Origin: an uncultured bacterium
GTDB taxonomy: Bacteria > Acidobacteriota > Thermoanaerobaculia > Multivoradales > JAHZIX01
Length of the DNA: 64,000 nucleotides
Assembly: GCA_965368975.1 (NCBI GenBank)
Contig: CBDUPA010000021.1
Span: forward strand, 32,001 to 96,000
Reading direction: 5' to 3'
How positions within the stretch are numbered: the first letter of the stretch is position 1; each line of letters opens with the position of its first letter. The notes under the pieces are model-generated. The model saw only the letters and a list, made by a program, of their open reading frames with translations. It made no database searches and was not told the origin of the DNA. Positions 8,395-52,373 of the stretch are shown here, piece after piece. A program made the position numbers and the translations under genes.

Positions 8395-8853
8395 ATGACA
8401 TCGCGCAAGCAGAAGACCCTGATCGCCCTGGCCGTCCTGGGCCTCACCCTGCAATTCGTCCCCTACGGCCATGGCCGCGACAACCCGCCGGTGACGCAAG
8501 AGCCCCCTTGGGACTCGCCACGCACGCGTGAGCTGGCTGTGCGCGCCTGTTTCGACTGCCACAGCAATGAGACGCGCTGGCCCTGGTACGGCTACGTCGC
8601 ACCCATCTCGTGGCTGCTCGTCCACGACGTCGAGGACGGCCGGCGTCACCTCAATTTCTCCGAGTGGCAACGCCCACAGCGCCATGCACACGAGGCTGCC
8701 GAGGAGGTCGTCGAGGGCGAGATGCCGCTGTGGCAGTACGAGTTGCTGCACGGCGAAGCACGCTTGACGGAAGCTGAACGGGGAGAGTTGGTGCGCGGTC
8801 TGCAAAGGACCTTGAGCCTCCGTTCCCGACGGAGCGGCGAGTCAACAGACTGA
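8395..8853 (+). CDS. Monoheme cytochrome c (Haem_bd domain)
   Basis: RACFDCHSNETRWPWYGYVAP...LNFSEW...GEMPLWQY matches the Haem_bd family pattern. Confidence 0.85.
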   Translation: MTSRKQKTLIALAVLGLTLQFVPYGHGRDNPPVTQEPPWDSPRTRELAVRACFDCHSNETRWPWYGYVAPISWLLVHDVEDGRRHLNFSEWQRPQRHAHEAAEEVVEGEMPLWQYELLHGEARLTEAERGELVRGLQRTLSLRSRRSGESTD

Positions 8854-18367: not shown

Positions 18368-18757
18368 CTACAAGTACCGCTCCCCCACCACCTCGACGTC
18401 GAGCGAAAACTCGTACAGCCGCATTCCACCATACAACGCCCGCACGTTCTCGTACCCCGCCTGTCGCCAAGCCCGCGCCGCTTCCGTCGCGGCACTGCCG
18501 TCCTCGTCTATCAGCACCACCTCGACTCCCGGCGTAGGGCTCCAGTGGACGTCCCCCTTCTTGCCCTCCGGCAACGGCTCCGCACCGCGTAGCCGCGTCT
18601 CGACTTCACCGGTGCGCATGTCGAACACCTGCAGAGACGCCCCCTTCTTCGCAAAGACACAGCGCAGCTTGTGCAGCAGCGCGGCGGGGGCGATGTGGAG
18701 ATCTGGGTCGAAGTCAGGGACGTCGAGGTCTCGCGGCGCGTCCACGACTTCGCTCAT
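18368..18757 (-). CDS. Rhodanese-like domain protein
   Basis: VFDMR...AARAWRQAGYENVRALYGG fits the rhodanese fold. No catalytic Cys is evident (LIDEDG). Confidence 0.7.
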   Translation of the reverse strand: MSEVVDAPRDLDVPDFDPDLHIAPAALLHKLRCVFAKKGASLQVFDMRTGEVETRLRGAEPLPEGKKGDVHWSPTPGVEVVLIDEDGSAATEAARAWRQAGYENVRALYGGMRLYEFSLDVEVVGERYL

Positions 18758-18790
18758 GGTTCGGCTAGCTACCACCCAAGTAGGGCCAGC

Positions 18791-20029
18791 TCAGGCTACC
18801 TGACCATCGTGCCCCGACCACACCAGGCCCGACACCAGCTTGGGCAGGAAGCGGGTAGCCTTGGCCGGGAGTAGATCGCCCTTGGAGATCGCTTCGCCGA
18901 AGTCGAGGGCGCTCATCGGCGGCAGGTAGACACCCCAGGTGAAGGTGCCGTCCGTGACCTGGTTGTAGAGCATGTCCGGGTTGGCGCGGTAAGTAGTGGT
19001 GCCGTCGAGGGCGGCTTCGGGGGGCATGCCGAGTTCGGGCAGCAGGTGGAAGTGCAGGTGCGCGACGGCGAGGCGCTCCGACGCCGGGGGGTTGCCAGCG
19101 GGCATCTTGGCGGGATCGAGCAGCCACAGCTCAGTACCTTGACCGTACACCTGGACGGCCAGGGCTGGTTGCTCCGCGTTGGCGACAGCGGCCGCGATGT
19201 CAGGGCCGCTCGACGCTTCCAGGTGACGGACTTCGCGCGCCAGCGGACGTAGCTTGTCGAGATCCTGCGCGGCGGCGAAGGCGCGGTGGATGGGGTCGAT
19301 CACCATGTCTTCGTCGCGCATGCTGAACAGGACGGCCATCTTGCAGCCGGCGGCGGTGCTCTGGCCAGCGTGGCCTTCCTGCTCGGCGTAGGTGCGACCC
19401 ACCTTGTAGCGATGGTGGCCGTCGGCGATGGCGGCCGTGCAGGGGCCAAGGAGTTGCTGGTATTGCTGCACGCGCGCCGGCTCATGGACGCGATAGAGAC
19501 GATGGACGTTGCCGGCATCGTCGGTGTGGGCGACCAGGGGGTCACTCGCCGTGTCTTCGGAAATCATCGCCGCCATGGAGCCGGGCTCGTCGGCCAGGAA
19601 CATGACCGGCTCGTAGTCGGTGCGCGTGGCCTTGAGCAGGTTCAGACGATCGGCGAAGGGCTTGTCGAGCGTCTTCTCGTGCGGCCGGATGACGCCGGAG
19701 CTTTCGGGCTCGACACCGACCAGCACGCAGATACCGACGCGCTGGCCTCCGCCCGCGAGGTCGACGACATACGGGTAGAGCGACGGTTCCTCGTCGCGCT
19801 GAACGGTCCCGTCGCCGCGCCACTGCTGGTGTAGGGCAGCACTATGCTGGTAGACATCGCCCTCGGGGCCGGGCACCGGCTTGGTGAGGTGGGCGAAATG
19901 GTGCGGCTGGGTCCGCTGCAGGCGGTCGCGCAGTTGGTCGTCGATCTGATCGAAGGGCGGTGCGGCCAGGGTCGCAGGATCGTTGCCCTGGGCGCTATAG
20001 CGAAGGCCTTGGAAGGCGTGGATGCGCAT
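18791..20029 (-). CDS. DUF1015 family protein
   Basis: MRIHAFQGLRY, APPFD, IRPHEKT, IADGHHRY and KATRFLPKLVSGL. Confidence 0.9.
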   Translation of the reverse strand: MRIHAFQGLRYSAQGNDPATLAAPPFDQIDDQLRDRLQRTQPHHFAHLTKPVPGPEGDVYQHSAALHQQWRGDGTVQRDEEPSLYPYVVDLAGGGQRVGICVLVGVEPESSGVIRPHEKTLDKPFADRLNLLKATRTDYEPVMFLADEPGSMAAMISEDTASDPLVAHTDDAGNVHRLYRVHEPARVQQYQQLLGPCTAAIADGHHRYKVGRTYAEQEGHAGQSTAAGCKMAVLFSMRDEDMVIDPIHRAFAAAQDLDKLRPLAREVRHLEASSGPDIAAAVANAEQPALAVQVYGQGTELWLLDPAKMPAGNPPASERLAVAHLHFHLLPELGMPPEAALDGTTTYRANPDMLYNQVTDGTFTWGVYLPPMSALDFGEAISKGDLLPAKATRFLPKLVSGLVWSGHDGQVA

Positions 20030-20251
20030 GGGATCTCCTCGGTGGGTCGAGTCAGGTAGGTCTATCTGAGGCGACGCCGTGGAGTGCTGGATGAGCGCCG
20101 CGCCCTGATTGTACTCGGGTGTCGATCCGGATTCATCCGAGCGCCAACCAGAACCCGGCCCCCGAGAGCCGGGAGCCGGGCTGTGGGAAGTGAAGCCCTT
20201 CTGAGTGCAGCGCTCGAGAGCGCCGTTCAGAAGCTTGTAGATCTTCGAAAG

Positions 20252-22390
20252 CTAGAAGCTGTAGGCCAGCCCCAAGCTATAGAAGCTGACTTCGCCAGAC
20301 GTGTCGTAGAGGTACGGCGTGTCGTCCTGGAAGTCGAGATAGCGATACCCGCCGGTGACGGCCAGCTGCGCGGTGGCCTGATAGCGCAAGCGCAGCGCCA
20401 GCTCCAAGCGGGAGAGATCGAGATCGGAGTTGGTGTGGGTCAGGGTGAAGTCGTAACTCTGGTTGGGGTTGAGCAGAGTGCCGGGGACCTCGAAGTCGAA
20501 GGGCGCGAGGGCGGCTTCAGCCTCGGTCCACGCCAGATCCAATCCCAGTTCGAGTTCGTTCGTGGGCTGCCACTCGAGACCGGTGGCGATCACGCTGTCG
20601 TTGGTGTCGTAGTTGAGCAGAGTGCGTGCCGAGCCAGACTGGCCCGAAAGGATCGAGCCTGCTCAGCCATCGAAGATGGGGATGAACGATGGATACTTCA
20701 GCTCGGTATCGTGCCAGGCATAGGAGCCGTACCACTGCCAGGTCTCCGCCGGCGCCCACCAGAGAGTCGCAGTGAAGCTCTGGTGCGTGCGCGACCAGTC
20801 GGTGAAGTCGAGGTCTTCCGAGCCGTCGTTGTCACCGTCCCACCAGGTGTAGGAGGCGCTGAAGTTGCTCTTGCCGGTGGCGTACGTGCCCCCCAGCTTG
20901 ACCTCGTCCCAGCTCTCGGCGGCCGCCGTCGTGTCCGCGACGCGCGCGTCCTGGAACTCGTAGTATTGCGCCGCAGTCGGTGCGAAGGGGCTGGGAGCAG
21001 CACTCGAGACCAGGGTCGAGAAGGCACCGTCGACCGTCGCGAAGGGATGGTCGACCTGGCCGTGGCGATAGCCCGCGGACAGGCGCAGACCTTGGCGCGG
21101 CCTGGCCCACCAGCGCAGCCCCAGGACATTCTCGGTGGTGTCGGTCTCACCGAGCGCGACCTCGTAGTGATCCCGTCGTAGATCCTCGTACTCCCAGAGC
21201 AGCCGCACTCGCCCCGCCTTGCCGGGAAGCTTGGTGGTCAAGTCGAGCTTGGAGTCGAAGATCTCGCGGTCGAGGGCCGACTGTCGCAGGTAGTCTGGAT
21301 CGAAGCCGTAGACGTCACGGAAGGTACGACCAGCATGCGGCCCCGCAATGCCAGGCGGCTCGGCGATGTCGACGAAGATGTCGTCGCTGTCGATCTGCGT
21401 GTAGCGGCCACGCCAGCGCAGTTTCCAGCGCTCGTGGAAGGTGTGCACCGCGTTCACCGCATAGCCATCGTAGTGCGCCGACAACCCCGTGAGTTCGTTC
21501 TCGGTCTGCGACCAGACGCCACTGGCATCCAGGGCCAGGCCGCCGGGACGCGCGAAGCTGAGGGTCAGCTTGGCGATGTCCTTGCTGGTGTCTGGGCGCT
21601 GGTGCACCGGCTGCGGACCCTGAGCCGAGTCCCACTGCAGGCGGTTGTCGAACACCGGGACGCGCAACTCGGGTTGCAGGGCGTCGTCGAACAGAAGGTC
21701 GATATCACGCACACCTTCGCGCAGCTCGCGCCGGACATAGCTGGCGCGCAGCTGGGTGTGTTGCCAGGCATAGGAAACCTCGACACCGACGTCTTCCGTG
21801 CTCTCGTCGAGCGGCCGACTCTGACTGTAGACATGGCAGGAGTCGCAGTGCGAGATGGTGAGCGCCTGGTATTGCCCTTCGCGTTCCTGGCGACGGTAGA
21901 GCAAGGCCAGGGTGAGAGCATCCCAGTCGCGAGGTTGGAACTCGGTGCGATGCCGCAGGTCACTGTAGGTGAGCTCGTAGTCGGCAGCCGGATCCAGGTC
22001 GGTGTGATGGACGTAGCGGCCGTGATTGGTAGCCGCTTCGAGATTGGACAGTGGATCGTGACCCAAACGATGGAAGAGCTTCAGGAACTCGGTGCTCGAG
22101 CGCAGCTGACGCCCCCCCAAGTCGAACGCCAAGCGGTGCATCTGGTCGTCGTCGTCGCGCCAGTCGAGGTCGAGATCGAGAAAGCCCGCCTCCAGTGCGC
22201 TGGTGAAGCGTAGTTGCAGATCGACACCGCCATCGGTTGTCTCGTATTCACTGACCACATCGGGGGAGCCATCGACATCCGCATCCCAGACACCAACTTG
22301 CAGCTCACCTTCCTGGGTCTCCTCGGTGAAGCCCACTGCCGGCAGGACGAGCAGCATGCCCAGCAGCAAAGGGCAGAACAAGCGTTTCAT
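20252..22390 (-). CDS. MtrB/PioB-like outer-membrane beta-barrel with CXXCH, probable selenoprotein (in-frame UGA at 20663-20665, 712 aa)
   Basis: ORFs 20663..22390 and 20252..20593 are in the same frame, separated only by TGA plus 23 sense codons. The read-through product ends SLGLAYSF (beta-signal). It has a signal peptide, HCDSCH, a SECIS-like hairpin and an upstream decaheme gene. Confidence 0.85.
20630..20646 (-). promoter_or_regulatory. Putative bacterial SECIS element
   Basis: Minus-strand CGGGCC-AGUCU-GGCUCG hairpin at +17..+33 after UGA, with GU in the apical loop at +24/+25. Confidence 0.75.
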
Positions 22391-22405
22391 GATCTTCCTC
22401 CTCGC

Positions 22406-23359
22406 TTACCAGGTCAGGCCGCGACCCTGGCCGGGAACCGTCTGCGACGGCAGGTCCGAACCATGGACTCGGGAGTGGCACTGAGTGCAGCTGGTGGTGA
22501 AGGCGATGTTCATGCCGCGAGGGCCAAACGGGTTCTCACGCTCAAAACCGCCGATCTCCACTTCGTCACCTTCGCCGCCGCGATAGCCGGAGTGGAAGTG
22601 TGGCTCGTGGCACTGCAGGCACAGCGCCGGTTCGTTCGCCACCAGCAGGTTGTCCGCCACTGATCCATGCGGATTGTGGCAGCTCGAGCAGTCTTCTTGC
22701 ACCGGTTCGTGCTCGAAGACGAAGGGGCCTTCTTTGTCCTGGTGGCAGTCGTAGCACAGGTCGTTACTGCGCAGCGCGGTCCGTAGCTGTCCCTCGCGTG
22801 CGTTGTGCACGTCATGGCAGCTGGCGCAGTCCATCTTGCCTTCACGCAATGGATGGTGCGACGGCAGCCGGAAGCTGGCGACCACGGCGCCATGGCAATC
22901 CTGGCAACTGTCGAGTGATGCCACTCTCGTCTCGGCGCGGTGGACCGAGTGGCAGTCGGTGCAACCCACATCTTCAAGGGCGTGCGTCGAAGCGTGCCAC
23001 TGGCCCAGCCCTTTGACCTGGTGACACGAGAGGCAGGTCTTGTCGCCCCAGGTCGTATCACCAAAGCCGCCGATGCTCTCGGGCGTCATCTCATCAATGT
23101 GCACCGAGCCCGGGCCATGGCAACCCTCGCAGCCGGTCGCACGGCCTTGCACTTCAAAGGGCTGGATGCGCGCATGAATCTGCGCCAAGCCGAGCTGCAG
23201 GTCTTCGTGACAGGTTAGGCAGGTTTCGTCGCCGACGTACTCGGCGGGTATGCCATCGAGCGAGGCGCTTCCCGCCGGGGAGAGATCGGCAGGATGACGC
23301 GCCGCGACGGTCCCGAGTAGCACCAGCGACACTGAGCAGAAGAGCAGTGTGCCTCTCAC
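22406..23359 (-). CDS. DmsE/MtrA-type periplasmic decaheme cytochrome c
   Basis: Ten CXXCH motifs counted. CEGCHGPGSVH, GPFVFEHEPV and CHSRVHGSD. AGGAGG RBS precedes GTG 23359, followed by a signal peptide. Confidence 0.92.
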   Translation of the reverse strand: MRGTLLFCSVSLVLLGTVAARHPADLSPAGSASLDGIPAEYVGDETCLTCHEDLQLGLAQIHARIQPFEVQGRATGCEGCHGPGSVHIDEMTPESIGGFGDTTWGDKTCLSCHQVKGLGQWHASTHALEDVGCTDCHSVHRAETRVASLDSCQDCHGAVVASFRLPSHHPLREGKMDCASCHDVHNAREGQLRTALRSNDLCYDCHQDKEGPFVFEHEPVQEDCSSCHNPHGSVADNLLVANEPALCLQCHEPHFHSGYRGGEGDEVEIGGFERENPFGPRGMNIAFTTSCTQCHSRVHGSDLPSQTVPGQGRGLTW

Positions 23360-23541
23360 GGCGGGACCTCCTTCCCTTGCTCCGCAAGTGCGAATCGCGC
23401 TCGGGAGCGAATTCATCGTCATCCCGAATTTAGCGCGACAGCGAACTACAGGCATCCACCGAGAGGAGAGTTAGTCCGCCGTCTGATCGGAGTGGTGGAC
23501 TGCCCGAAAGGGTAGCAAGAGGCGCTGCGGACTGTACCTTG

Positions 23542-24896
23542 CTACGTCACCGCGGTCTGCTGCCGGAACTCTCCTCTCCGCCACTCCTCGTCGATCATGA
23601 CCCGCCGCAGAGCTTCGACCGCATCCCACATGTCGACGTAGCGCAGGTAGAGCGGTGCCAAGCCGAAGCGCAGGACGTCTGGAGCGCGGAAGTCGCCGAT
23701 CACGCCTCGGGCGATGAGCGCTTGCACGATGGCGTATCCCTCGGGGTGGCGCAGGCAGACCTGACTGCCGCGCTGCTGGGCACCTTCAGGGCACGCCAGC
23801 TCGAGAGCGAAGTCTGCGCACCGCTCGGCAACGAGCCGCAAGAAGAGATCGCCCAACCGCATCGACTTGCGGCGCACCGCGTGCAGGTCGACGCCGTCCC
23901 AGACATCGAGAGCGGCGTCGAGAGCGGCCAGGCTGAGGATGGGGGGCGTGCCGCAGACGAAGCGCTGAATGCCGTCGGCGGGACGGTAGTCGAGGTCGAA
24001 GGCGAAGGGAGCTTCGTGGCCGAGCCAGCCACTGAGCGGTGAATGGACCCACGGCTGCAAGCGCTCGGCGACGTAGAGGAAGGCCGGAGCACCAGGCCCC
24101 CCGTTGAGATACTTGTAACCACAGCCGACGGCGAGATCGACGTTGCAGGCGTCCAGTTCGACGGGCAGTGCACCAGCGCTGTGGGCCAGGTCCCAGAGCA
24201 TCAAGGCACCCGCATCGTGGACAGCCCGGGTGACGGCTTGCATGTCGTGCTGGGCCCCGGTCCTGAAGTCGACGTGGGTCAGAGCGACGACCGCGACGGC
24301 ATCACCATGCTCGCGCAGGGCAGCGCTCAGACCTTCTGCGACAGGCTCGCGGCTGCACGGGGCGGCGTCGATCACCTGCACGCGGCATCGATCCTCCCCC
24401 AGAAGCCTTGCATGATGTAGAGGTCGGAAGGGAAATTGCCGCGTTCGGACAGGATGAGTGATAGGCCCCCTGGCTTGCCTGCGGCCCCCTTTGGCTTGCC
24501 AACAGCCCTCCCCGGCTTGCCAACAGCCCTCCCCGGCTTACCAACAGTAAAGTCGAGAGCAGCGGCGAGCAGTTTGAACAAATTGGCGGACGTAGAGTCC
24601 GCGACCATCACCTGGCCAGGTTTCGCCCCGACGAGCCGGGCGATCTTGTCGCCGGTACGGCGAGCCAGATCGATCCAGCCATGCTGATTCCAAGAGCGGA
24701 TGAGATCGTGCCCCCACTCCTGCGTGACCACCTGCTGCAGGCGCTCGGGGACCCCGAGCGGCAGGGCGCCGAGGGAGTTGCCGTCGAGGTAGAGAACACC
24801 TTCGGGCAAGGAAAACTCGAGGCGCAGGGATGCCAGGGGATCGTCGTGGTCGAGAGCGGCGCAAGCGTCGCGGCTAGCCAGGGCAGAAGCAGGCAT
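23542..24896 (-). pseudogene. kynU: Kynureninase, frameshifted near 24400
   Basis: The N-half (YLDGNSLGALP, DSTSANLFK, NFPSDLY) and C-half (WDLAHSAGA, GCGYKYLNGGPG) lie in different frames. Confidence 0.85.
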
Positions 24897-50378: not shown

Positions 50379-50435
50379 CCGCGCCTTTCCCAGCGCACCC
50401 ATCACACAACCGTCGCCGTTCCAGCAAGGAGCCGC

Positions 50436-50720
50436 ATGATGCCTGCACCCGAGAGCCAGGATTCGCCCGCCACCTCCCAGCAGCCCGCTTCTACGCAGAC
50501 GGGTGCTCAGCAGACGGGTGCTCAGCGGACGGGCGTCGAGAGCGAGTTCGAGCGTGCTGCCACGGGCAAGCAAGCCGGCCTGTTGCAAGAGCTGTGGGGC
50601 TTCGTCTGGGAAAGCAAGAAGTGGTGGTTGACGCCGATCCTACTGGTGCTGCTCCTGCTCGCGGCGTTCGTCCTCTTCGGTGGCGGCTCCGCCGCGCCTT
50701 TCATCTACACCCTTTTCTGA
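50436..50720 (+). CDS. DUF5989 family small membrane protein
   Basis: ELWGFVWESKKWWLTPI...AAPFIYTLF. Confidence 0.88.
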   Translation: MMPAPESQDSPATSQQPASTQTGAQQTGAQRTGVESEFERAATGKQAGLLQELWGFVWESKKWWLTPILLVLLLLAAFVLFGGGSAAPFIYTLF

Positions 50721-50735
50721 GTCTCCGGAGTCCGC

Positions 50736-52373
50736 ATGAGCCTTGAAATCAATCAAATCCCGCACCGCGTGCTGCGCAAGTTGCACGCCAACCAGGCCGT
50801 CGTGCTGACTACCGGCCACCTGGGCGACAAGGTTCTGGTCTCCACCAGCCTCGACCCCGGCGACCTCTACGAGACGTCCGAGCTGAGCAGCTTCGCCGAG
50901 TGCCGGCGGCAGGAGAACGTGCACTCGATCACCATGACCATCCTCAAGGTCGACCGCGAGGTGATCCTGGAGTCGACCAGCCACCTGGAGAGCCGCTACC
51001 GCATCATCTCCGAGCTGGACACCCTCCTGCAGTACAACCAGGACGTCTACGTGGTCTACGTGATCACCCACTACAACCCAGCTCAGAAGCCCTTCGGCCC
51101 CCTGACCATCAACATCGGCGGCGACTGCCACCGCACCGGCCGGCACATCCGCGACCTGCAGTCCATCCTGACGCGCACGCGCGACCTGGCCGAGGCGATG
51201 CTCAAGAAGTCCGTGATGATCTTCCCCGACATCCCGGCACTGCACGGCGGCAAGAAGGGCGAGTGGATCATCCTCGACCGTCACGGTGACAAGATCGATG
51301 GCCTGTCCGAAGAAGCCATCATCGCGCTCGGCTCGGCGATCATCCCCAAGGGTATTGGCTTCCTCAACCGCTACAAAGAGATGCAAGCGCGCGACATGGG
51401 GATCTGCGAACGCTTCCCGCGGCAAAACTACATCATGCCCGACAGCGGCTCACCGGACGTCCTCTCCGGCGTCTTCTGGCGCGGCGAGCGCAAAGACAAG
51501 TACATCAATATGTGCGACGCCTGGTACCAGCGCGGCACCAACATGGCACAGTTCACCTGCCTGCCCGCCAACCTCGGCGGCACCATCGACTCGTCGGCCC
51601 GGCCCACCGGCTACGGCGTCAGCACCACCACGGTCGAGCTGGCCAAGCGTTATTTCGAGCCGCGTGGTCGCGACCTGCAGTCGTTGCAGTTTCTGCTCGA
51701 GGCCGCCGGCAACGTCGGGCAGAACACCATCGAGTCCCTGATCCAGCAGTACGGCGTGCCGCCCGAGAACATCACCGTCTTCGACCGCGCCGACCCGGCG
51801 ACCAAGGCGGCGATGGAAAAGTACCGCGTCAACGGCATCACCCTGCGCCACGGCGACTTCTACGAAGTCCGCCTGCCCGAAGAGGTACGTCAAGGTAAGA
51901 GCTACGACGTGTGGGTGAACAACGGCGAGGGCGACAACACCACGCCCAGCTACGTCGACAATCTGCTGGCGGCCGGCGTCAAGGTCTTCGCCGGTGGCGC
52001 CAACAACCTGCTACAGGTACGCACCGAGACCGAGTCCCGCCAGCGCATCTTCGACGCCGGCGGTTGGATCTGGCCCGATCCCGCGACCAGCGGTGGCGGC
52101 TGGACCCTGGCGGTGATCGACATCATGACCCGCTGCCAGAACCGCAAGACCAACACCCCGGAGATCCAGCAGCGCATCCTCGACATCATCACCAGCCGCA
52201 ACCGCCGCCTGGTCGAGGACGTGCTCGACGGCAACTCCGAACTCAGCGGCAGCGACATCTGGAAGCGCGTCGACCGCCTGATCGAGGCACGCGTGCAGAA
52301 GACCCTGTCCCTGGATCTCTCGCCACGCGAGATCTTCGACGGCGCCGATACAACCAAGTGGGCGTTGGTCTGA
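50736..52373 (+). CDS. Divergent Glu/Leu/Phe/Val dehydrogenase-like protein with N-terminal extension
   Basis: LAEAMLKK, HGGKKG, DSSARPTGYGV, AAGNVG, AGGANN and WPDPATSGGG line up with ELFV dehydrogenase motifs. Confidence 0.65.
   Translation: MSLEINQIPHRVLRKLHANQAVVLTTGHLGDKVLVSTSLDPGDLYETSELSSFAECRRQENVHSITMTILKVDREVILESTSHLESRYRIISELDTLLQYNQDVYVVYVITHYNPAQKPFGPLTINIGGDCHRTGRHIRDLQSILTRTRDLAEAMLKKSVMIFPDIPALHGGKKGEWIILDRHGDKIDGLSEEAIIALGSAIIPKGIGFLNRYKEMQARDMGICERFPRQNYIMPDSGSPDVLSGVFWRGERKDKYINMCDAWYQRGTNMAQFTCLPANLGGTIDSSARPTGYGVSTTTVELAKRYFEPRGRDLQSLQFLLEAAGNVGQNTIESLIQQYGVPPENITVFDRADPATKAAMEKYRVNGITLRHGDFYEVRLPEEVRQGKSYDVWVNNGEGDNTTPSYVDNLLAAGVKVFAGGANNLLQVRTETESRQRIFDAGGWIWPDPATSGGGWTLAVIDIMTRCQNRKTNTPEIQQRILDIITSRNRRLVEDVLDGNSELSGSDIWKRVDRLIEARVQKTLSLDLSPREIFDGADTTKWALV

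Follow-up and report, generated by a model that had tools for sequence, protein, structure and literature searches.

A porin-cytochrome gene pair with an in-frame UGA

We analysed a 64,000-nucleotide stretch of contig CBDUPA010000021.1 from an uncultured bacterium (hereafter the window, meaning this whole stretch of 64 kb), in which two adjacent genes on the minus strand encode a decahaem c-type cytochrome and a large outer-membrane porin, the latter with an in-frame UGA as codon 576 that we propose to be read as selenocysteine (Sec). As called, the porin open reading frame (ORF) covers 20663..22390(-), encodes 575 amino acids and ends in ...SFIPIFDG, followed by TGA. Past this TGA, 136 further codons in the same frame (AGSILSGQSGSA...) lead to ...SLGLAYSF and a TAG, giving a product of 712 amino acids in read-through translation. 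The cytochrome gene lies upstream, with a gap of 15 nucleotides between the end of its ORF and the porin start. A first-pass annotation of this DNA had pointed to the TGA after FIPIFDG, the GLAYSF end, a hairpin, a CDSCH haem motif and an upstream decahaem gene, and all of these elements are present on the minus strand; its end coordinate of 23359 implies a later cytochrome start than the first ATG at 23455. Together with the preceding residue, the single haem-binding (CXXCH) motif of the porin reads HCDSCH (residues 181-186; 21833-21850).

Both proteins could be assigned to curated families. The porin scored 540.1 bits against NCBIfam NF041027 (GSU2204 family CXXCH-containing (seleno)protein; curated cut-off 350), with positions 3-580 of the 580-position model aligned to porin residues 11-575, so that the match ends at the residue before the UGA; the model is named 'Se_pt_1' ('part 1'). 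What defines a member of this family is found here in full, namely a score over the whole model, a single CXXCH in the barrel, and a UGA where the model ends with the remainder of the barrel behind it. The cytochrome scored 345.6 bits against NF041028 (GSU2203 family decaheme c-type cytochrome; cut-off 325) and, by this score, its ten CXXCH motifs and its position beside the porin, is a member of that family; it also passes TIGR03508 (DmsE family) with 222.8 bits against a cut-off of 192.2. These are the two families that the first-pass annotation had named, and both curated cut-offs are passed. On the read-through porin, Pfam MtrB_PioB (PF11854) reached 30 bits (cut-off 23) over residues 315-690, a match that spans the UGA. 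The nearest relatives of the window porin share 55-60% identity with it.

The UGA and the frame behind it are conserved among relatives

DNA of relatives was gathered by scanning one genome per species with search patterns taken from other parts of the protein, which yielded 75 loci, 73 of which reach the UGA site and two of which are cut by contig ends before it. These loci come mostly from Acidobacteriota metagenome-assembled genomes (Thermoanaerobaculia, Holophagae and Vicinamibacteria), with one from Calditrichia and a few under other bin labels. At the aligned site all 73 loci have an in-frame TGA, never TAA or TAG, and residues are conserved on both sides of it. Where the whole gene is available (n=67), the frame ends ~137 codons past the TGA, with Phe as the final residue in 61 loci and Trp in three. 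A terminal Phe or other aromatic residue is the usual C-terminal signal of barrel proteins. As expected of a selenoprotein gene, the coding sequence is conserved both before and after the in-frame UGA.

Protein databases hold the gene in its cut form. All 103 database relatives cover at most 81% of the read-through protein, none covers its C-terminal fifth, and the 34 that were aligned all stop at the same invariant D574-G575, as anticipated by the claim that standard annotation would split the gene. A profile run against 1.84 billion cluster representatives returned 1136 matches (E <= 0.001). We examined the best 150 of these, of which 123 end in an aromatic-x-Gly tail at the Sec site; the rest are 13 full-length proteins and 14 fragments. 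The porin had also been described as a hidden selenoprotein, which holds in that gene callers do cut it at the UGA, but not in that NCBI has curated a model for exactly such a truncation and the GSU2204 family is listed in Table 1 of a 2026 review as a predicted selenoprotein, described there as MtrB/PioB-like (PMC13188914).

A covarying SECIS-like hairpin follows the UGA

A candidate selenocysteine insertion sequence (SECIS) lies directly at the UGA (Table 1). In numbering that starts with the U of the UGA (position 1), the hairpin has C20-C25 and G31-G36 as its two stem arms and AGUCU as its loop; this is +17..+33 past the UGA, exactly where the first-pass annotation had placed it. The hairpin begins 16 nucleotides past the UGA, has a stem of 6 base pairs and a spacing of 22 nucleotides from UGA to loop; folded alone it reaches -10.6 kcal/mol (z-score -3.18), and 0 of 200 shuffles fold as well. 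Bacterial SECIS elements are described as having a loop of 3-9 nucleotides with a G in its first two positions, an upper stem of 4-16 base pairs, a UGA-loop distance of 16-37 nucleotides and a minimum free energy of -7.5 kcal/mol or lower, the typical loop being N1-G-[G/U]-N-N2 with N1 and N2 pairing (PMC13188914, section 5). The window hairpin agrees with all four of that source's criteria. Adding the lower helix, in which the UGA itself is paired, gives a 55-nucleotide fold of -20.4 kcal/mol (z-score -1.79).

By itself this thermodynamic evidence is modest, and it is the comparative evidence that counts. We aligned the element from the window and from 70 of the 73 loci (n=71), one locus being too short and two identical to others. 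In the upper helix, both partners have changed in seven of nine aligned pairs and pairing holds in 88.6% of cells, despite six distant sequences that are out of register; in the lower helix the corresponding values are two of eight pairs and 73.4%. The covariation score of the whole structure was 0.302 as compared to 0.141 +/- 0.008 in shuffles (equalled by 0/500) and no more than 0.153 when the partners are slid, although scores of this kind are inflated by a conserved coding region and by related sequences. In one covarying pair, the third (wobble) base in a Gly codon is matched to the middle base of the facing Tyr, Phe or Ser codon (UA 25, GC 20, AU 17, CG 5), a pattern that would be hard to explain by protein constraints alone. 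A scan of 20400-20800 against Rfam placed no curated family on the hairpin and returned only a sub-threshold chance match (17.4 bits versus 46).

The earlier proposal of a selenoprotein thus stands on a TGA in 73/73 loci, a frame kept beyond it, a hairpin within the SECIS limits and covariation in its stem. Read-through of UGA576 is strongly supported, and the porin is best read as a predicted selenoprotein with a SECIS-like hairpin.

Table 1 Features of the porin-cytochrome locus (window coordinates).
Feature	Position	Strand	Remarks
Decahaem c-type cytochrome gene	22406..23455	-	349 amino acids from first ATG, 10 CXXCH; MtrA/DmsE-like, GSU2203 family
Full porin gene	20252..22390	-	712 codons with UGA576 as Sec, plus TAG stop (20252-20254)
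In-frame TGA, proposed Sec576 codon	20663-20665	-	TGA at the aligned site in 73/73 loci reaching the site
C-terminal 136 codons after the UGA	20255..20662	-	Barrel strands 22-26, terminal Phe
Haem c attachment motif CDSCH, residues 182-186	21833..21847	-	Turn between barrel strands 7 and 8
SECIS-like element	20611..20665	-	Lower helix including the UGA (positions 1-8 with 45-52) plus upper hairpin
Upper SECIS hairpin CGGGCC-AGUCU-GGCUCG	20630..20646	-	Loop at 20636-20640
Terminator-like GC hairpin	20154..20173	-	~80 nucleotides past the real stop; weak (1 found versus 1.2 expected in shuffles)

The read-through porin is modelled as a 26-strand MtrB-like barrel

The 712-residue read-through porin was modelled, without cofactors, from an alignment of 37 read-through proteins. 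The model (mean predicted local distance difference test score, pLDDT, 85.5; predicted template modelling score 0.80) has 26 long strands, and its best match among solved structures is 6r2q_B, the MtrB of the Mtr complex (E 5.9e-24, template modelling scores 0.68/0.74, 12% identity), followed by TonB-dependent receptors with template modelling scores of ~0.4. MtrB was found by fold comparison only, as the profile of the read-through alignment gave 0 hits to PDB sequences at E <= 1. The 26 strands, the match to 6r2q_B and the PF11854 match all place the porin among large barrels of the MtrB fold. Family scores, fold match and adjacency in this way agree with the first-pass suggestion of an MtrAB-type pair, the porin being an MtrB-type barrel and its partner an MtrA/DmsE-type decahaem cytochrome.

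Where an odd strand leads to an even one, the connection is long (13, 3, 30, 6, 42, 5, 39, 10, 45, 12, 10, 28 and 9 residues), and where an even strand leads to an odd one, it is short (2-7 residues); the former connections are therefore taken as the outer loops by the usual porin convention. The CXXCH forms the turn joining strand 7 (159-179) and strand 8 (186-209), and Sec576 lies in the turn joining strand 21 (551-573) and strand 22 (584-607). Since these four strands are the longest in the model, both motifs appear to cap long hairpins on the outer face; CXXCH and Sec576 would each occupy the tip of one of the two longest hairpins of this long-loop side.

The decahaem cytochrome is the recurrent partner

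An ORF with ten CXXCH motifs lies directly upstream of the porin in 60 of the 67 loci; four of the remaining seven are cut by contig ends and three have the cytochrome in pieces. By tblastn, a cytochrome homologue is found in 72/75 loci. The three loci with pieces (L013, L014 and L059) seem to have the decahaem gene split in two ORFs (4+5, 7, or 6+4 CXXCH), which may be frameshifts or assembly errors. Five other window neighbours (rhodanese-like, DUF1015, kynureninase, DUF6616 and phosphomannomutase genes) and NAD synthase occur in 0/75 loci. On this count we rejected as parts of the module both the rhodanese-like ORF (18368-18775(-)), two genes downstream of the porin, and the DUF1015 gene (18791-20029). 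The rhodanese-like ORF recalls ExtH of the Geobacter ext cluster.

Extra multihaem ORFs accompany the pair in 24/67 loci, and none was found in the other 43 within the DNA covered. One such arrangement, seen in L007 (3382-6460) and ~20 more loci and not in the window, has a DUF3373 protein and a 7-haem Cytochrome_cB protein (~470 amino acids) upstream of the pair. In one Thermoanaerobaculia locus (L018, 3761-6943), the next gene after the Sec-porin is an ORF of 1060 amino acids containing 23 CXXCH motifs. The 64 kb window holds neither an MtrC-type surface decahaem cytochrome nor any further ORF with more than one CXXCH. Because the cytochrome recurs and the other neighbours tested do not, the conserved unit is the two-gene pair and not a three-gene set of the Mtr type.

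Altogether, we are fairly confident that the locus encodes a two-gene porin-cytochrome module of the GSU2203/GSU2204 type, in which an MtrA/DmsE-like decahaem cytochrome is paired with a 712-residue MtrB-like barrel that is complete only when UGA576 is read as Sec by way of the hairpin behind it. The scores and counts given above document directly, or strongly support, the assignment to these families, the conservation of the recoding signal, the class of fold and the pairing of the genes, and conserved adjacency together with homology suggests that the two proteins form a complex.

Possible roles of the barrel haem and Sec576

The haem motif is the more constant of the two porin motifs. Residues C182, C185 and H186 are invariant in all three alignments (n=35, 37 and 16), and U576 and G575 are invariant in the 37 read-through proteins. 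Cys takes the place of Sec in none of the 73 loci. The site varies among the 13 distant full-length representatives: four print a C (P0110, P0116, P0162 and P0199), which may stand for an annotated Sec, and nine keep the CXXCH with Gly or another residue in place of Sec. All four apparent Cys forms and three Gly forms exceed the NF041027 cut-off. Since nine relatives have the CXXCH with neither Sec nor Cys, the haem site does not depend on Sec; to judge from these sequences, it is an ancestral and universal feature of the family, with Sec dominant but not obligatory.

In 54 of the 123 Sec-truncated representatives (P0105-P0253 set), a Cys stands seven residues before Sec (C-x6-U), which is not the case in the window protein; in some subfamily it may act as the resolving Cys. 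We also considered whether His181 goes together with Sec and rejected this, the residue before the CXXCH in the same 123 representatives being His in 68 and Lys in 50, with no motif in five.

Attachment of haem to the barrel CXXCH and a function of Sec576 are predictions from sequence motifs. By homology to MtrAB, the periplasmic MtrA/DmsE-like decahaem chain would thread the barrel from the periplasm, and its last haem would exchange electrons, in either direction, with the barrel's own haem at the outer mouth. The barrel haem, with Sec576 nearby, would thereby take the place of a separate MtrC-type surface cytochrome, and Sec576 on the same face may add a selenium-based redox, ligand or substrate-binding function. 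In its most far-reaching form, the barrel haem and Sec576 would meet at the outer pore mouth as a surface selenium-haem site (possibly His/selenolate). This site would be the terminal oxidoreductase in a two-gene conduit of 11 haems and replace MtrC-type cytochromes in many uncultured lineages; we give this full version a small chance only. The redox or metal-binding site that the first-pass annotation proposed for Sec576 and the haem would have to join two motifs on hairpins 14 strands apart, and some family members have the CXXCH without Sec or Cys.

A more specific alternative makes Sec576 the sixth (distal) ligand of the barrel's c-type haem, resulting in a His/selenolate haem at the outer mouth that can be likened to the His/Cys haems of sulfur-oxidising cytochromes. 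The placement of both motifs at the tips of the two longest hairpins of the same face, the invariance of U576, G575 and CXXCH in the read-through proteins and the apparent Cys in four distant full-length relatives would all suit such a ligand. Against it stand the distance of 14 out of 26 strands between the hairpins, the nine relatives in which the CXXCH persists while Gly or a different residue fills the Sec position, and the conserved histidines H111 (at least 90%) and H239, which lie nearer the haem hairpin and are alternative ligand candidates. That Sec is dominant without being obligatory also argues against it as a required haem ligand, and we regard this coordination as distinctly unlikely.

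Weighing the Sec-porin module

Several observations weigh against the module with a Sec-containing MtrB-like porin that we propose. No match to selA, selB or selD was obtained among the 45 window ORFs scanned (64 kb alone being uninformative either way), and the 64 kb contains no tRNA-Sec, nor any tRNA gene; tRNA-Sec was likewise found in none of 60 related loci. TIGR03509, the MtrB/PioB subfamily model with a cut-off of 240 bits, gave no match to the window porin at E <= 0.01, and relatives of the porin reach only 19-35 bits on it. At the RNA level, a 76-nucleotide window stretch on its own is not unusually stable (z-score -0.34, equalled by 66 of 200 shuffles), the minimum-energy fold of 40 nucleotides favours a competing pairing, and the covariation scores carry the inflation mentioned above. 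As for the protein, the topology comes from strand counting without coordinates, mean pLDDT drops at both special turns, to 75 over the haem turn (residues 181-190) and to 59, the low point of the model, over the Sec turn (residues 571-580), the two hairpins 14 strands apart would stand on roughly opposite walls of the barrel, and nine of the 13 distant full-length relatives do without Sec or Cys.

The TGA could also be a true stop, leaving a truncated barrel of 575 residues with or without a separate small protein, or else a pseudogene or split gene. This is the version that gene callers give, Sec machinery is not seen in the window, and downstream a GTG-initiated ORF of 113 codons (20252..20593) could supply the separate protein. 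Such a stop would have to be TGA specifically in 73/73 loci, never TAA or TAG, with the same frame and conserved residues continuing on both sides of the codon. The barrel would lose strands 22-26 and the C-terminal aromatic signal, the Pfam match runs across the site, and in the window no start codon occurs within 23 codons after the TGA. We consider a true stop very improbable. Equally hard to credit is a reading without Sec, in which leaky termination or a reassigned code puts Trp, Cys or Gly at the UGA, and for which the open frame and the lack of Sec machinery in the window could be cited: 17 of 31 window ORFs, full-length family matches among them, have TGA as their normal stop, as does the porin gene itself in many related loci, so the genetic code is not reassigned, and a conserved covarying hairpin at SECIS distance would have no role in plain read-through.

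A composition screen of the window for other recoded UGAs gave only the porin site and one at 50718. The latter, within 50379-52373(+), follows 113 open coding-like codons and is in frame with an ORF of 545 amino acids (50736-52373; weak ELFV_dehydrog match); a second recoding site and a mere upstream open frame are both conceivable.

Significance of a Sec-containing porin-cytochrome module

Because most gene callers cut the porin at the UGA, surveys of extracellular electron-transfer genes will see a broken barrel or miss the porin. An MtrB-type barrel with its own haem and nearly always with Sec suggests a widespread two-gene conduit with the exit site built into the porin. If this is true, selenium supply would be tied to the redox chemistry of minerals and metals in Acidobacteriota and other lineages of sediments and soils. 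In G. sulfurreducens provided with haematite, GSU2203 (OmcK) was up 2.68-fold and GSU2204 up 2.36-fold, according to Table 2 of a published study (PMC4070692). This response is the sole experimental hint for the family that we encountered, and the literature searched contained no functional study of the GSU2204 family or of a Sec-containing MtrB-type porin, although others may exist outside the scope of the search. That G. sulfurreducens carries the family makes a study at the bench feasible.

Other features of the window

The terminator-like site of Table 1 is no better than expected by chance from the shuffles, and a promoter scan of 20000-23700 returned 0 sites. A kynureninase is present in two overlapping ORFs at 23542-24896(-), of which 24372-24896 corresponds to model positions 1-108 and 23542-24381 to positions 161-399; the first piece contains a 21-bp tandem repeat (24493-24547, 2.6 copies, GKPGRAV-like units). 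The split could reflect a frameshift or an assembly error, or the gene may be a pseudogene. Elsewhere, at 8395-8853(+), a 152-amino-acid Haem_bd domain protein with one CXXCH is encoded directly upstream of a helicase-like ORF of 961 amino acids, which has partial matches to anti-phage helicase models.

Comparison with known systems

ExtKL (GSU2937-2936) of Geobacter is a predicted Sec-containing multihaem cytochrome of an extracellular electron transfer cluster whose annotation is split at the UGA (PMC5877670; PMC13188914, Table 1). It resembles the window porin as a predicted selenoprotein of an electron transfer cluster that annotation cuts at the UGA; it differs in being a 5-haem cytochrome and not a porin, and ExtI, the porin of its cluster, is unrelated to the window porin.

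Among barrels with a haem of their own, Cyc2, a fused cytochrome-porin, has an N-terminal haem domain ahead of a smaller barrel. The window porin does not have this architecture, its CXXCH being the turn that joins strands 7 and 8 within a barrel of 26 strands, and the window system adds a separate decahaem partner and Sec. What the window porin would share with Cyc2 (PMC8406198) is an outer-membrane barrel with its own single c-type haem.

With MtrCAB of Shewanella (6r2q), the window pair shares the 26-strand barrel, MtrB as the best structural match and the position beside a decahaem gene of the DmsE/MtrA family. It is set apart by 12% identity with no PDB sequence match, an unmatched TIGR03509 and the lack of an MtrC-type surface cytochrome in the window. 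The window barrel also carries a CXXCH and Sec, whereas MtrB, to our knowledge, has neither. PioAB and MtoAB of Fe(II) oxidisers consist of two genes, a decahaem cytochrome and an MtrB/PioB-type porin, without a surface cytochrome, and the window pair has the same two-gene arrangement; we know of no haem site or Sec reported in porins of the PioB/MtoB type.

Closest of all are GSU2204 and GSU2203 (OmcK) of Geobacter sulfurreducens, with the same single CXXCH, Sec site at the end of the model and adjacent decahaem gene, from which the window member differs by its Acidobacteriota-like lineage. Within the family it is only 25% identical to P0110, a full-length form that scores equally on NF041027. 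This kind of protein is thus already catalogued, in curated NCBIfam models and a review listing, and the window gene is a new, Acidobacteriota-like member. New here are the breadth and near-fixation of the Sec form, the covariation support for its SECIS, an MtrB-like model of 26 strands that puts the haem motif and Sec at the tips of outer hairpins, and the two-gene core.

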